64,000 nucleotides of DNA, taken from positions 64,001-128,000 of the forward strand of contig JAYKHS010000014.1 in the NCBI GenBank assembly GCA_035285865.1. The letters run 5' to 3'. The position numbers are program-made. Below are positions 21,001 through 36,000 of this stretch, piece by piece. The DNA is from Candidatus Sericytochromatia bacterium (GTDB taxonomy: Bacteria; Cyanobacteriota; Sericytochromatia; S15B-MN24; VGJW01). Position 1 is the stretch's first letter. Each line of letters opens with the position of its first letter.

Positions 21001-24000
21001 CGAACGCCGGGATGCCCCGAGAGGTCGCCGGGCGCAAGATGTACCTGTCCAGCCCGGAGTACATGGCGCGGTACGCGCGTCGTCTGATGCAGGTTGGGGC
21101 GAGGCTCGTCGGAGGTTGCTGCGGGACGACCCCCGAACATGTGCGTCTGATGGCCGATGCCGTGCGGGCGCGGGGGCCGGGGCGCGTGCGTGTCGTGTCC
21201 CGCGAGCAGGCCGTCCCGGCGGTCGTCGCCCAGGAACCGCCCGTCCCGTTGGCCGCGCGTTCGCGCCTCGGGGCGCGTCTGGCGTCGGGGGAGTTCGTCT
21301 CGTCCGTCGAGTTGTTGCCGCCCCGGGGCGTGGACGTTGCCGACTGGCTGGAGCGGGTGCGGCACTTGCGCGACGCCGGCATCGACGCCCTGAACGTGCC
21401 GGACGGGCCCCGTGCCCAGAGCCGGATGAGCGCCCTCGCCGCGAGCGTCCTGCTGGCCCGCGAGGGGCTCGAGCCCGTCGTCCACTACACCTGCCGGGAC
21501 CGGAATCTGCTGGGCATGCAGTCGGATCTGCTCGGAGCCGCGGCCCTCGGCATCGGCAACCTGCTGCTCGTCACCGGGGATCCTCCCAAGATGGGGCCCT
21601 ATCCGCAGGCTACGGCGGTCTTCGACATCGATGCCATCGGTCTGGCCAACATGGTCCGGAACCTCAACCTCGGGCTGGACCTCGGAGGGCATCCGATGGG
21701 CAGCCGTACGGCTTTCTGCTATGGCGTCGGGGTCAATCCCGCGGCCCTCGACCTCGAGCACGAACTGCGGCGCTTCGCCTGGAAGGTCGAGGCGGGTGCC
21801 CAGTTCGCCATTACCCAGCCGGTCTTCGATGCGGCCCAGTTCGAGGCCTTTCTCGAGCGCGCCCGGCCTTTCGGCATCCCGATCGTGGCCGGCATCTGGC
21901 CTTTCGCCAGCCATCGCAATGCCGAGTTCATGGCCAATGAGGTCCCGGGCGTCTCCGTCCCTCGGGAGCTGTTGCGCCGCATGCAGCGCGCCGAAGCGGG
22001 CGGTGCGGCTGCCATCGAGGGCGTGGCGATCGCGCGCGAGATGCTGGCGCGATTCCGCGGGGCGATCCAGGGCGTGCAGATCAGCGCTCCGCTCGGGCGA
22101 GTGGACCTGGCGCTTGCCGTGCTAACCTAGGCATCATGCGCCTTCTGGACCTCGTGCATGCCCTCGACGCGCAGGTCGGTCGACCCGCCACCTTGTCGAT
22201 CGTGGGCACGGCCAAGAATGTCGGCAAGACGACCACGCTCAACTGGCTGATCGAGCGCCTCGCGCCTGCGGGACCCCTCGGCCTGACTTCCGTCGGTCGG
22301 GACGGCGAGGATCTCGATGCCGTCACGGACCTTCCCAAGCCGCGCATCCGTCCTCCGGTCGGTACGCTGCTGGCGACGGCAGAAGCCTCGGCCCGCAGGG
22401 CCACGGCGCCGTTGGTGCGGATCGCGGAAACCGCGGTCCACACGGGTCTGGGGCCCGTGGGTATCTACCGTGTCGCCGGGCGGGGAGCCGTGGAGATCGC
22501 AGGACCCGTGACGGTCGAGGGCGCGGTCGCGGTGCGCGAGGCACTGCTGGGTGCGGGTGCCGTGCGGGTTCTCGTGGACGGGGCCATCGATCGGAGGGCT
22601 TCGGCCTCGCCCAAGCTGGCCGAGGGTGTCCTGCTCGCGACGGGACTGGCCATGGCGGCATCCGGCGGGGCGCGGCTCGCCCCGATGGCGGGCATGCGGG
22701 CGGATACGCTGGCTCGGCCCGAACCCGGTGCATTGGCATACCGCGAACGGACGATTGAGGATAGCATTTACGTTGTTGATTTGTTGACAATGAATCAAAG
22801 CGGTAATTTGATTGAAGTTCTTTATCCGTCTTGCATGAATGCTGACGGCAGCGTTGTCCCCTATCTCTCGGGTCAGGCGCTGGAAGATCCTGTGGCCTTC
22901 GCGGCGTGGCTGCCCGACGACCTGCAGGCCCTGCATCTGCCCGGAGCCCTCTCCGAAGGCCTCGCCCAGGCGTTGCTCGACCGCCGCTTGCCGACCGTGC
23001 CCATCGTGCTGCCAGACGCCACGCACGCCGTCTGTCGTCCCGCGACCCTCGCTCGCCTGCGCAGGCGCGGGCACGCCATCGAGGTTCGTGAGGCCATCCG
23101 CCTCCTGGCCGTCACGTGCAACCCCACGGCTCCGCACGTGCAGGCCCTGGATGCCGCGGACTTGCTGCGCGCGCTGCGCGAGGCCCTTCGGGTACCGGTC
23201 TTCGACCTCGTCGCACAACCGTGAATCTGCCCGAGTCGGCCCTGAAACCTTTGCCATGCGTCAAATGCGCGTGAAACCCGTTACGCGCAGCGGATGATCG
23301 GTGCATGGTGATCGGGTATCCCTCTCATTACCGAGGCATCCCCCGATGTTCAAGCCGGAGATGGGCGTCCGCTCCCCGTCGGGCCTGCTCAGGCACAAGG
23401 GGCTGACGGGCGAGTTGCCGGCCATCGACGGTGGCGAGAATCCGCAGGAGGCTCGCGCGGCCAAGGCCCCCAATCGGCCATCCCCCGGACCTTCGGCCAC
23501 GACGCAGGACGGCTTCGCGGGCAGCCGGGATTGGCAAGCGGCCATCGACAGGATGGCTTCCGGATTGACCCGGGGGCCGGTGGACGCTCCTGTCGGCGAG
23601 CCGACGCCGGCTCCGAGGCCGTTGCCACAGGCCGCCGAGCCGAATCCCGCGGAGCCGCTCCCGGCGTTCCGCAGGGGAACCGCCCAGCAGATCCAGGCGA
23701 CATTCATCGCCCAGTCCTACGGTGGTGGCGGACACCCCATGGCGGCTGTTCCCGAGGATCTGGCCAAGCGTCTGGGCGGCGATGGGCAGGCCCTCAGGGC
23801 GCTTGAACTGCTGATGGTCCGCGGCATTGCCGAGCGGATGGACAGTCGCGGGAACCGGGTGATCGATCACCTGCGTGCCATCCTCGACATGCCCGTCGTC
23901 GCCGGACGTCCCAGCCCGTTGCAGGTCGCACGGGAGCTGATGGACGGCCTGTTGTCCCCCCACAGCATCCAGCAGGGGCAGGGGACCTTCAGCTGCACGG

Positions 24001-33000: not shown

Positions 33001-36000
33001 AACTGGTCGGGCCCCAACACTTCGACTTCGTGCTGGGCGTGCCCGGGGCGATGGCAGGGACTCCTGCCAATTTGATGCATTTGGTCTCGCTCCTCCCTGA
33101 AGGCCACACTTGGTCCGTGGCCGGCATCGGTGCCGCGGAACTGACACTGGGCACCCTCGCCGTGGCCTTGGGCGGGCACGTTCGTGTCGGCTTCGAGGAC
33201 AACATCTACTACCGCAAGGGCGAGCTGGCCGAGAGCAACGCCCAACTCGTCGCACGGATCGTGCGCATCGGTCGCGAGCTCGACCGCGCGCCGGCGACGG
33301 CCGCCGAGGCCCGCAAGGTTCTCGGACTGCCGTTGCGCAAGGCGCCGCGCCTGACCCCCAACAAGTAGCCCGACGTGTCGACGACCTCAACGACGGAACT
33401 TAGCCCATCGCCCATCGGCCTTCATCGGGTGCTGGCGCCAGCCGGTGTTCTGCCCTACGACGCCGAGCGTCTGGACGTGGCCTCTCCCCTCGCAGTGGGT
33501 GAGGCCGAGGTCCGCGTCGACACCCTGAACATCGACTCGGCCAGCTTCACGCAACTGCTCGCCGAAGGCGGCGGAGATCCGGCGCATGTGGCTCGGCGGG
33601 TGATGCAGATCGTCGACGAGCGCGGCAAGATGCACAACCCCGTCACCGGTTCGGGCGGGGTCCTGTGCGGAACGGTCACTGCCGTTGCGGAAGGGGCGAC
33701 GGCGCACGTCGGTTCCCGCATCGTGACGTTGTCCAGCCTCACGACCACTCCGCTCGAGTTGGACCGGGTGCTGGAGATTCGTCCCGAGCGGCATCAGATC
33801 CGTGTCGAGGGCCGGGCCTTCCTCTATGCCCGTACACCTTTCGCGGTGCTGGATGACCGGCTACCCGAGGATCTGGCGCTGGGGGTACTGGATGTCTGCG
33901 GTGCCCCGGCCCAGGCCGCAAGGCTGGCCAAGCCGGGAAGCACCGTGGCCGTGCTGGGGGCTGCGGGCAAGTCGGGTACCTTGGTCTGCTGGGTCGCTGC
34001 CGCGCAGGGCGCGCGGGTCCTCGCGCTCGTGCGCAGCCCGGAGGAGGCGGCTCATCTCGCGGCCCTTGGCGTGCCGATGGATTGTGCGGTCGTGGATGGC
34101 CGCAACGCGGTGGCCGTTCAGGATGCCGTCGGTCGGATGACCGCCGGTGCGATGGCGGACGTGACCATCAACTGTGTCAATGTGCCGGGTGTCGAGATGT
34201 CGTGCATTCTGGCGACCCGTCCGCGCGGCATCGTCTATTTCTTCAGCATGGCCACCAGTTTCCAGGCAGCCGCACTGGGCGGAGAGGCTCTGGGCGCCGA
34301 TGTGGACCTGATGATCGGCAATGGTTTCGCCGAGGGCCACGCGGCTCTGGCCCTCGACCTGGTTGCATCCCAGCCGCCCCTGCGGGCGGCCCTCGAACGT
34401 CTCGGACGCGCATGACCCCATCTTCGGAATCCGCCGCCCCCGAGGCCGCAGCGACGACGGCCGGCCGTCTCGCCGAACTTGAAGCGAGGCAATCGGGAGC
34501 GCTCGAGGGCGGGGGGGCGGAGGCCGTTCGCCGCCAGCACGATCGCGGCAAGCTGACGGCTCGGGAGCGCATCGAGCGGTTGCTGGATCCTGGCAGTTTC
34601 GTGGAGCTGGACCGCCATCGGGTCCATCGGGCGCATGCCTTCGGGATGGCCGAGCGCAAGGTGCCCGGCGACGGTGTCATCACAGGGCACGGCACAGTGG
34701 ACGGACGGCTCGTCTATGTGTTCAGTCAGGACTTCACGGTGTTCGGGGGCTCGCTTGGCGAGGTTCATGCCGAGAAGATATGCAAGGTCATGGATCTTGC
34801 GCTCAAGGTCGGGGCACCCATCATCGGTCTCAACGACAGCGGGGGAGCCCGAATCCAGGAAGGTGTGGAGAGTCTTGGGGGCTATGCCGAGATATTCTGG
34901 CGCAACGTACAGGCGAGCGGCGTCATTCCCCAGATTTCGCTCATCCTCGGTCCGTGTGCCGGCGGGGCCGTCTATTCGCCGGTCATGACGGACTTTGTCC
35001 TGATGGCGCAGGACACCAGCTACATGTTCATCACCGGCCCGGACGTCGTGAAGACCGTGACCGGCGAGGATGTCACCTTCGAAGAACTCGGTGGTGCCTC
35101 GGTTCACAACACCATCTCGGGTGTTGCCCACGTTCGCTTCCCGAGCGAGGAAGAGGCGCTCGAGCAGACGCGCGTCCTGCTGTCGTTCCTGCCGGACAAC
35201 AATCTTTCGGAAGTGCCCATGGTGCCTTCCGATGATCCTGACGATCGGCCTTGCCCAGAGCTTCGGACCATCGTCCCGGACCGGCCGACCCAACCCTACG
35301 ACATGAAGGAGGTCATCGCCTCAGTCGTCGATGATGGCGACTACTTCGAGATTCAGCCCGAGTTTGCCCGCAACCTGATCACGTGCTTCGCACGATTGGG
35401 AGGCCAGACCGTGGGCATCGTGGCCAATCAGCCCCGGGAGATGGCCGGAACGCTCGACATTTCGGCCAGCATCAAGGGTGCCCGGTTCGTCCGAACTTGT
35501 GACGCCTTCAATATTCCGATCCTCACCTTCGAGGATGTTCCGGGATACTTTCCCGGCAAGCAGCAGGAGCACGGCGGAATCATCCGGCATGGAGCCAAGC
35601 TGCTCTATGCCTATTGCGAGGCGACGGTGCCCAAGTTGACGGTCATTACCCGCAAGGCCTACGGCGGTGCCTATGACGTGCTGGGCTCGAAGCACATCCG
35701 TGCCGACTTGAATCTGGCCTGGCCAACCGCCGAGATTGCCGTGATGGGGGCCGAAGGGGCCGCCGGGATCCTGTACCGGCGCGAGATTCAGGAGGACCCG
35801 GCGTCGCGTGATGCCCGCATCGCAGACTATCGCCAGCGGTTCGCCAATCCGTGGATAGCTGCCGAGCGCGGGTTTCTGGACGACGTCATCGATCCGGCCG
35901 AGACCCGCGTCCGCCTCATCGAGGCCTTGCGCGTCCTGCGGCGCAAGCGTGTCGAACGGCCCCGCCGCAAGCACGGAAACATCCCGCTATGACGGTGACG

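Follow-up and report, generated by a model that had tools for sequence, protein, structure and literature searches.

Gene content of the locus

The window analysed here, a stretch of 64,000 nucleotides from a Candidatus Sericytochromatia genome, carries on its plus strand the genes for lysine 5,6-aminomutase and for the enzymes that act after it. kamD (25029..26585) matches NF052384 with 738.8 bits (cut-off 600) and the solved structure 1xrs_A with an E-value of 6e-172. It overlaps kamE, the gene for the beta subunit (26582..27358; NF052385, 357.8 bits, cut-off 280; structural relatives 9q1a, 8t0v and 1xrs), which is followed by kal (27388..27789; NF052388, 181.8 bits, cut-off 160). Further downstream lie kce (32514..33368; NF052387, 380.3 bits, cut-off 382) and kdd, encoding L-erythro-3,5-diaminohexanoate dehydrogenase (33375..34415; NF052381, 195.1 bits, cut-off 200); they fall 2 and 5 bits short of the curated cut-offs, yet these are still their best families, and the best solved relative of Kce, 2y7d (E-value 1e-77), is far ahead of other BKACE members. 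All five genes are single-copy in the assembly, and their calls in the initial annotation are real. With both subunits above curated HMM cut-offs, and with the cobalamin-binding histidine (H123) and PLP lysine (K134) motifs of KamE invariant across 23 sequences, KamDE can be assigned to the lysine 5,6-aminomutases.

The genes had been described as one locus starting at 23346, but they do not form one block and the start has to be moved. The missed gene kamB, encoding a subunit of the reactivase that serves lysine 5,6-aminomutase, precedes kamD (22136..23224, plus strand; NF052386, 244.2 bits, cut-off 210). The gene at 23346..24845 (plus strand), between kamB and kamD, is a genus-level insertion and not a pathway enzyme: it is present in two copies at the same place in G024 and G026 and in none of the other 18 loci. 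Its hypothetical product, possibly with a papain/C39-like peptidase fold, belongs to no Pfam or NCBIfam family, and the Atlas provided leads only. Moreover, kal and kce are separated by a minus-strand type I exporter of three genes, encoding an ABC transporter, an HlyD-type adaptor and a TolC-type channel (27862..32347; Pfam ABC_tran, HlyD_3 and OEP). Of 20 loci compared, just those of G024 and G026 were seen to carry it at the corresponding position, and it is probably unrelated to the lysine pathway. The order kce-kdd is kept in relatives. kdd overlaps a gene for a PccB-like acyl-CoA carboxylase beta subunit (34412..35992, plus strand; PF01039, 666 bits); pccB also lies 3' of kdd in G010, G014, G024, G026 and G027, and the link recurs in two families.

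Distribution and descent

kamD is found in 23 of the 26 relatives of the order and in 25 of the 46 of the class, closely reproducing the earlier figures (22/26 and 23/46) and bearing out the view of the pathway as a hallmark of one order. Above the Pfam cut-off it was found in 0 of 354 genomes sampled outside the class. Matches to kal and kamB are similarly frequent (23/26 and 25/26). In the KamD tree, 22 genomes of the order and G001 form one clade with support of 100/100, and each family is monophyletic. Judging from these sequences, the pathway genes are vertically inherited in this Sericytochromatia order; recent transfer or contamination of the bin is ruled out by even GC content and by the family-congruent KamD tree.

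A divergent KamA subtype

The candidate for lysine 2,3-aminomutase (KamA) is encoded elsewhere in the present genome (G000 C4:35590-36987), unlinked to the kam locus. That such an enzyme is encoded elsewhere in the genome had been proposed before, and part of this holds: the protein keeps the catalytic residues and, in relatives, the pathway neighbours, but it scores only 241.9 bits against TIGR03820, the model of canonical lysine 2,3-aminomutase (cut-off 525.4). The CxxxCxxC motif and the residues matching R134, D293, D330 and K337 of 2a5h, which we take to be the substrate-binding Arg/Asp/Asp and the PLP lysine, are invariant in 95 of 95 sequences of the subtype. The zinc-binding cysteines, C268 and the C-terminal ones, are lacking: none of the 95 sequences has a cysteine at the C268 column and 90 have none after the PLP lysine. 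Among four canonical controls, one of them truncated, three have a cysteine at the C268 column and two have C-terminal ones. We found neither this zinc-cysteine-less subtype nor any characterisation of it in print.

The subtype is present in 23 of the 26 relatives of the order. It adjoins kamB in G010, G011, G014 and G015 and lies 3' of kdd in G017–G019; furthermore, kdd is directly upstream of it in 53 of 71 non-kin loci. Since the catalytic residues are kept and relatives show these neighbours, the divergent KamA can be tied to the pathway as its predicted entry enzyme, which would form (S)-beta-lysine from L-lysine. Identity as EpmB was rejected (TIGR03821, 156.5 against 369.3 bits): efp is on another contig, and epmA has only matches of 32% and 28%, both to putative tRNA synthetases. 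The models for glutamate and arginine aminomutases were not reached either.

KamB without KamC

The KamB/KamC reactivase of lysine 5,6-aminomutase has reportedly been studied biochemically in Fusobacterium. The KamB subunit found here agrees with that system in matching its model and in its place before kamD, whereas the MutS-like ATPase KamC was not found; searched with NF052383 (KamB with NF052386), KamC is above cut-off in 0 of 47 genomes of the class, and the matches found are MutS/MutS2-sized. As positive controls, kamC adjoins kamB in four of four Eremiobacterota and in G594. MutS2 was considered as a stand-in for KamC and rejected; kal is near mutS2 in five f2 genomes, but with an opposite-strand gene between them, MutS2 is full length, and neither gene shows the link in six f1, f3 and f4 loci.

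The predicted structure of KamB (pLDDT 92) has, according to the model, a SIMIBI-class P-loop NTPase fold, and the P-loop and Walker B motifs are intact. In this class of fold it resembles MeaB/MMAA and the G-domain of IcmF, which are NTPases acting as chaperones for B12 mutases, but there is no sequence match, and only about half of the chain aligns. Comparison with SRP GTPases, UreG, BioD and IcmF gave VIA Z values of 10–12 (IcmF 10.3), and because these tie, KamB cannot be considered a MeaB family member. Foldseek returned no match at an E-value of 0.001 or better, with MeaB among the weak rows. All 16 orphan KamBs compared have an Asn-Pro motif that is missing in seven of seven KamC-paired ones. 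As a contrast between the two kinds it was set aside as a lead only, because it is likewise invariant across 91 aligned sequences, among them Bacillota-named ones that may be KamC-paired. KamB kept without its partner was not found in print. Our search, which did not extend to papers behind subscription or to the supplementary files of PMC8245535, PMC6349859 and bioRxiv preprints, where these genes could be listed, found no description of KamB alone or of this pathway in Sericytochromatia.

Respiration or fermentation of lysine

The clostridial and fusobacterial lysine fermentation set consists of KamA, KamDE, Kdd, Kce, Kal, AtoAD, Bcd-Etf and acetate kinase. The present genome resembles it in gene set, with KamD, KamE and Kal fitting the curated models and Kce and Kdd nearly so. 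It differs in that KamA belongs to another subtype, about 38% identical to the canonical one according to the initial annotation; in that KamC, the kinase, Pta and Rnf were not found and a respiratory chain is present; and in that the genes are dispersed or interrupted.

As previously proposed, a route from lysine to acetoacetate and crotonyl-CoA is encoded, and its products are most likely fed into respiration. Peptides would supply L-lysine, which the divergent KamA would convert to beta-lysine and the B12- and PLP-dependent KamDE to 3,5-diaminohexanoate. Kdd would oxidise this compound, giving NADH and ammonia, and Kce would convert the product with acetyl-CoA into acetoacetate and 3-aminobutyryl-CoA, from which Kal may release crotonyl-CoA. 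Crotonase, 3-hydroxybutyryl-CoA dehydrogenase, thiolase and 3-oxoacid CoA-transferase would then turn crotonyl-CoA and acetoacetate into acetyl-CoA, a net three per lysine. The TCA cycle would oxidise this acetyl-CoA, and the electrons would reach a heme-copper oxidase by way of complex I and ACIII. Salvage would provide B12, and KamDE would be maintained by KamB without KamC.

Several genes fit this scheme. Within the window, a probable ETF:quinone oxidoreductase (2762..4465, plus strand) is assigned on protein length and a ferredoxin motif at the C-terminus, its family matches being FixC-like only; with this query, similar genes were found in 14 of 26 relatives, all in families f1 and f2 and none in f3 or f4. 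Also present in the genome are a crt-thl-hbd-acd cluster, 3-oxoacid CoA-transferase A/B, IcmF, MeaB, cobA/T/S, gltA, sdh, sucAB, nuo and cox. The nuo, cox and ACIII genes lie where they had been reported, the ACIII-like block being recognised by weak family matches only; the reported corrinoid uptake and salvage genes are likewise present, but the TonB receptor is far under the BtuB cut-off (117 against 600). By contrast, ackA, pta, aceA/B, cydA, ADP-forming acetyl-CoA synthetase, rnf, pfo, ldhA, cadA, glaH and ccr were not found; since the genome is 82.7% complete, these absences are weak on their own. Acetate/butyrate kinase is, however, also absent from all seven family members and present in only four of 26 genomes of the order. 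Neither of the means of substrate-level ATP formation from acetyl-CoA that this fermentation uses (Pta/AckA or the ADP-forming synthetase) was found in the genome, nor was Rnf. With kinase, Pta, Rnf and PFO not found and beta-oxidation, ETF, TCA cycle and oxidase in place, lysine is probably respired. What the data show is gene identity, conservation, synteny, vertical descent and the missing fermentation genes; the enzyme activities, without exception, are inferred, and so are the direction in which flux runs and function in the presence of oxygen. Overall, a known beta-lysine route wired for oxidation is the probable explanation.

It is unlikely, though conceivable, that the pathway serves as an anoxic back-up, lysine being fermented or coupled to another acceptor, with crotonyl-CoA reduced to butyryl-CoA and ATP gained by CoA transfer and succinyl-CoA synthetase. 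Acyl-CoA dehydrogenases are present, and the one inside the crt-thl-hbd cluster could reduce crotonyl-CoA; sucCD, an EtfAB pair and the CoA-transferase are available, and oxygen sensitivity is established for both radical SAM and B12 enzymes, KamA enzymes being oxygen-labile in vitro. Of the 26 genomes of the order, 23 have a COX1-family gene, but the kamD-bearing G020, G022 and G023 do not, and G020 combines acetate kinase with a canonical KamA. Against this, besides the missing fermentation genes and the rarity of the kinase, the single EtfAB pair adjoins the nuo operon and not a dehydrogenase, and the CoA-transferase is of the ScoA/B family, scoring 240 bits against the 315 of the AtoD model.

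Still less probable is that the divergent KamA serves another purpose and that KamDE, Kdd, Kce and Kal scavenge environmental beta-lysine or D-lysine. Besides its score and its unlinked position in this genome, 27 of the 74 Myxococcota genomes bearing the subtype have no kamD match, so that it can have other roles, and fungi are the group in which a related Atlas cluster turns up most often. The subtype nevertheless has kamB or kdd as a linked gene in members of two phyla, its lysine-binding acidic residues are invariant, the EpmB model is not reached, and in G020 a canonical KamA takes its place beside kamB.

An anaplerotic or nitrogen supply, running from crotonyl-CoA through butyryl-CoA, isobutyryl-CoA (by IcmF), propionyl-CoA and succinyl-CoA to offset a missing glyoxylate shunt, is very improbable as the main function: IcmF (above cut-off), MeaB, mutase and epimerase, the pccB link and the failure to find aceA, aceB and ccr speak for it, but it would need a reductive step and valine pathway enzymes, and no kdd-pccB link was seen in the f2 loci or in G017–G019. 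It is compatible with the oxidative beta-lysine route as a side branch. Genes for biotin carboxylase, methylmalonyl-CoA mutase, epimerase, sucC and sucD (46315..53428, minus strand), identified by NCBIfam, constitute a predicted B12-dependent path by which propionyl-CoA would enter the TCA cycle.

Relation to other phyla

The presence of an anaerobe-type pathway in a respiring bacterium had been put forward as the surprise, but it is not special: among the sampled genomes, 91 of 151 from Eremiobacterota and 62 of 201 from Myxococcota carry kamD, and lysine pathway genes were reported in Actinobacteria in 2014 (PMC3994512). These groups share the KamA subtype at up to ~72% identity, whereas the KamD of the Sericytochromatia order forms a separate clade. 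Three Myxococcota likewise have kamB-kamD-kamE without kamC; by contrast, the four Eremiobacterota tested keep KamC. A broader reading, which we offer tentatively, is that Sericytochromatia, Eremiobacterota and myxobacteria have in common an unrecognised aerobic beta-lysine pathway with a zinc-free, oxygen-tolerant KamA subtype, that KamB, in this order as well as in certain myxobacteria, acts alone as a MeaB-like NTPase ejecting damaged cobalamin from KamDE, and that the pathway is the main lysine catabolism of protein-eating, possibly predatory respirers. Protein scavenging is plausible in view of the 33 subtilases, a count reproduced with an independent profile; for predation, a conjecture, the sole link is a preprint on a Myxococcus KamA, a putative orthologue. 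The ornithine route suggested earlier was not supported: the Ord-like protein scores 245.7 against 400 bits, and OraE is above cut-off in none of five genomes including this one, which gave only kamD/kamE cross-matches.

The prediction that peptides or lysine, together with B12, serve as substrates is the first at this level for an uncultured sister group of cyanobacteria and may be of use in cultivation. Furthermore, kam genes in metagenomes should not be equated with butyrate fermentation. Two proteins are candidates for study: the widespread KamA subtype, which may tolerate oxygen, and KamB, which may reactivate a B12 enzyme without the known ATPase partner.

AT-rich patches

Four conserved genes, kamB being one of them, contain genus-specific AT-rich patches. 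The in-frame patch of kamB (22745..22865) could not be explained as a DGR variable region, no template copy or reverse transcriptase being found, or as a sigma-70 promoter, with no consensus site in 20000–37000. Its GC content is 41–43% against ~70% in the flanks, and it takes the place of about 40 homologous codons. The patch is strongly variable within the genus; the GC dip is absent from G022, G023 and G027 and shared by G024 and G026.

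Lysine gene cluster

The five lysine degradation genes listed in the initial annotation are present on the plus strand of the window: kamD (25029–26585) and kamE (26582–27358) for the subunits of lysine 5,6-aminomutase, kal (27388–27789) for 3-aminobutyryl-CoA ammonia-lyase, kce (32514–33368) for the enzyme that cleaves 3-keto-5-aminohexanoate and kdd (33375–34415) for 3,5-diaminohexanoate dehydrogenase. The first three score above their NCBIfam cut-offs, kce and kdd fall 2 and 5 bits short of theirs with no better family for either, and alignments of KamD, KamE and Kce to enzymes of solved structure run over the full length. 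That list overlooked kamB (22136–23224, plus strand; NF052386, 244 bits). Nor do the genes form a single locus, as had been claimed: the cluster is split between kal and kce by a minus-strand TolC/HlyD/ABC type I exporter (27862–32347) and between kamB and kamD by a gene for a hypothetical protein of 499 amino acids (23346–24845). Among 20 related loci, both insertions are confined to the two from the same genus. The exporter appears frameshifted in G024, a congener. The hypothetical protein has papain/C39-like structural leads, with a Cys and a His plausibly placed; it has partial paralogues on five further contigs, and its closest Atlas clusters are myxobacterial. B12-user genes surround the cluster (16852–22130, 34412–35992 and 46315–53428), in a neighbourhood with metH, a bifunctional homocysteine methyltransferase/MTHFR, a pccB-like gene, methylmalonyl-CoA mutase, epimerase and sucCD.

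Distribution and descent

Matches to kamD are found in 23 of the 26 relatives in the order, in 1/1 and 1/6 genomes of two other families and in 0/13 of the last; kamB is matched in 25/26 and kal in 23/26 order relatives. In a phylum sample of 401 genomes, all 26 kamD matches above the cut-off lie within the class, with none in the 354 sampled genomes outside it. In the KamD tree (57 sequences, omitting the split genes of G013 and G015), 22 order genomes and G001 form one clade with support of 100/100, in which every family is monophyletic. This distribution, together with the family-monophyletic clade, implies that the pathway was already in the ancestor of the order; the tree being unrooted, it names no donor. 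KamD of G029 falls outside the order clade, on a long branch of odd composition. The corresponding locus, G029:C284 (L091), is an AT-rich kamB-kamD-kamE set in another family, representing either a separate acquisition or mis-binning. In family f2 (L256–L260), mutS2 lies 1–3 kb from kal, with an opposite-strand metallophosphoesterase-like gene between them.

KamB without KamC

By NCBIfam naming, the KamDE reactivase comprises KamB and KamC. KamC above the cut-off is found in 0/47 class genomes; its weaker matches there are MutS- or MutS2-sized frames, and the one tested, in the source genome, is MutS2. The KamC test works elsewhere, since kamC follows kamB in 4/4 Eremiobacterota and in G594; KamB of those four Eremiobacterota scores below that of the source genome. 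The kamB-kamD-kamE arrangement without KamC also occurs in three Myxococcota, from another KamD clade. KamB retains an intact P-loop and Walker B motif, and its confident structure model (pLDDT 92) resembles SIMIBI NTPases, namely, SRP54 (Z 12.0, rmsd 3.1, 169 aligned), UreG (Z 10.9) and IcmF (Z 10.3, rmsd 3.5, 158 aligned). We propose that KamB may be self-sufficient, with a MeaB-like role; it could also work with an unlinked partner.

Divergent KamA

The only KamA-family gene of the source genome (C4:35590–36987, outside the window) scores 241.9 bits against a lysine 2,3-aminomutase cut-off of 525.4. It also fails the models for EpmB and for glutamate and arginine aminomutases. The earlier assignment as lysine 2,3-aminomutase does not reach its cut-off. 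The tie to the lysine pathway rests on four lines. Orthologues of this subtype, at least 69% identical, occur in 23/26 order relatives. The gene adjoins kamB in G010, G011, G014 and G015 and follows kdd in G017–G019. Among the best 80 of 325 GTDB matches, 71 are neither titled nor placed as kin and are mainly Eremiobacterota; 53 of these 71 loci have kdd immediately upstream. Finally, G020 lacks the subtype and has a canonical KamA adjoining kamB instead. All 95/95 sequences keep what we take to be the residues for the iron-sulfur cluster, PLP and substrate, and the presumed zinc cysteines are absent. Among sampled Myxococcota, 47/65 kamD-positive genomes carry the subtype, but so do 27/136 kamD-negative ones, which counts against the tie.

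Oxidative or fermentative use

The source genome has complex I subunits, cox genes, an ACIII-like block and, adjoining nuo, EtfAB. CoxA scores 581 against the TIGR02891 cut-off of 671, and 440 bits on PF00115, a family that includes NO reductases and is found in 23/26 order relatives. Respiration in the class is already on record (PMC6349859). Downstream functions comprise a crotonase-thiolase-Hbd-acyl-CoA dehydrogenase cluster, 3-oxoacid CoA-transferase A/B, IcmF, MeaB and corrinoid salvage genes, alongside citrate synthase, Sdh and SucAB. Searches of this 82.7% complete assembly, by family model or by E. coli query, found no ackA, pta, aceAB, cydA, ADP-forming acetyl-CoA synthetase, rnf, pfo, ldhA, cadA, glaH or ccr. 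Acetate/butyrate kinase is absent from 7/7 family members and present in just 4/26 of the order. The lysine genes are real and conserved, and probably serve oxidative lysine catabolism, as the initial annotation had proposed.

G020 offers a natural contrast, having acetate/butyrate kinase and canonical KamA without an oxidase, and is possibly a fermentative lineage. At 95% completeness, it alone in the order combines a canonical KamA and acetate kinase with the lack of a heme-copper oxidase (G020:C131, L092). G022 and G023 carry the KamA subtype without a COX1-family gene, so the link with oxygen is not strict. Across the whole source genome, neither a glyoxylate shunt nor crotonyl-CoA carboxylase/reductase was found despite IcmF; ccr is present in G010.

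Occurrence elsewhere

The pathway in itself is hardly new. kamD scores above the cut-off in 91/151 genomes of Eremiobacterota (phylum of G402) and 62/201 of Myxococcota (phylum of G405; Polyangiaceae), both generally regarded as largely aerobic. In older work, isolates of Pseudomonas and Brevibacterium reportedly degraded beta-lysine and 3,5-diaminohexanoate aerobically. Several Actinobacteria contain the pathway (Vital et al. 2014, PMC3994512); supplement 4 of that paper names aerobes, e.g. Salinispora and Myxococcus, its text not specifying the pathway per organism. We found no published report of the pathway in Sericytochromatia among the papers listed, and 'lysine' is absent from the main text of PMC8245535. 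The host is thus new but the pathway known, and the two undescribed features are KamB on its own and the zinc-free KamA subtype. The proposed ornithine route fails: the Ord-like dehydrogenase gene (G000:C28:178548–179585, G000 being the source genome) is under its cut-off and the genome has no OraE. As to the conjectured predation, disruption of a 456-aa KamA gene, MXAN_4699, is reported to reduce evolved predatory swarming in Myxococcus xanthus (preprint 10.64898/2026.05.15.725110).

AT-rich patches and other genes

Six in-frame AT-rich patches of 100–170 bases lie inside GC-rich genes of the source genome: in kamB (window 22745–22865; ~120 bases at 41–43% GC), mnmG (about 1489–1618), murJ (G000:C8:12638–12769) and dnaE2 (G000:C1:3357–3529), and at G000:C2:25908–26043 and C7:47445–47568. 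Of the genus members, the three that have sequence at this site all carry the kamB patch, and the sister genera lack it; those in mnmG, murJ and dnaE2 are in 4/4 genus and 0/2 sister-genus genomes, and all four hold one position throughout the genus. The six patches, chosen for low GC, have 12 seven-mers (both strands) common to at least three of them against 2.6 expected, a number reached in 0/200 shuffles. Loose words in common include TTTGTTGAT and TTGTCA. Neither an RT nor a template copy was found for the patches, which are likeliest internal promoters or protein-binding arrays.

Elsewhere in the window, a minus-strand block (8482–12220), read from translations, holds genes that we take to encode a ThiF/E1-like enzyme, a ubiquitin-like small protein and a zinc-ribbon protein, and is adjoined by a presumably JAB-like gene (7815–8309).
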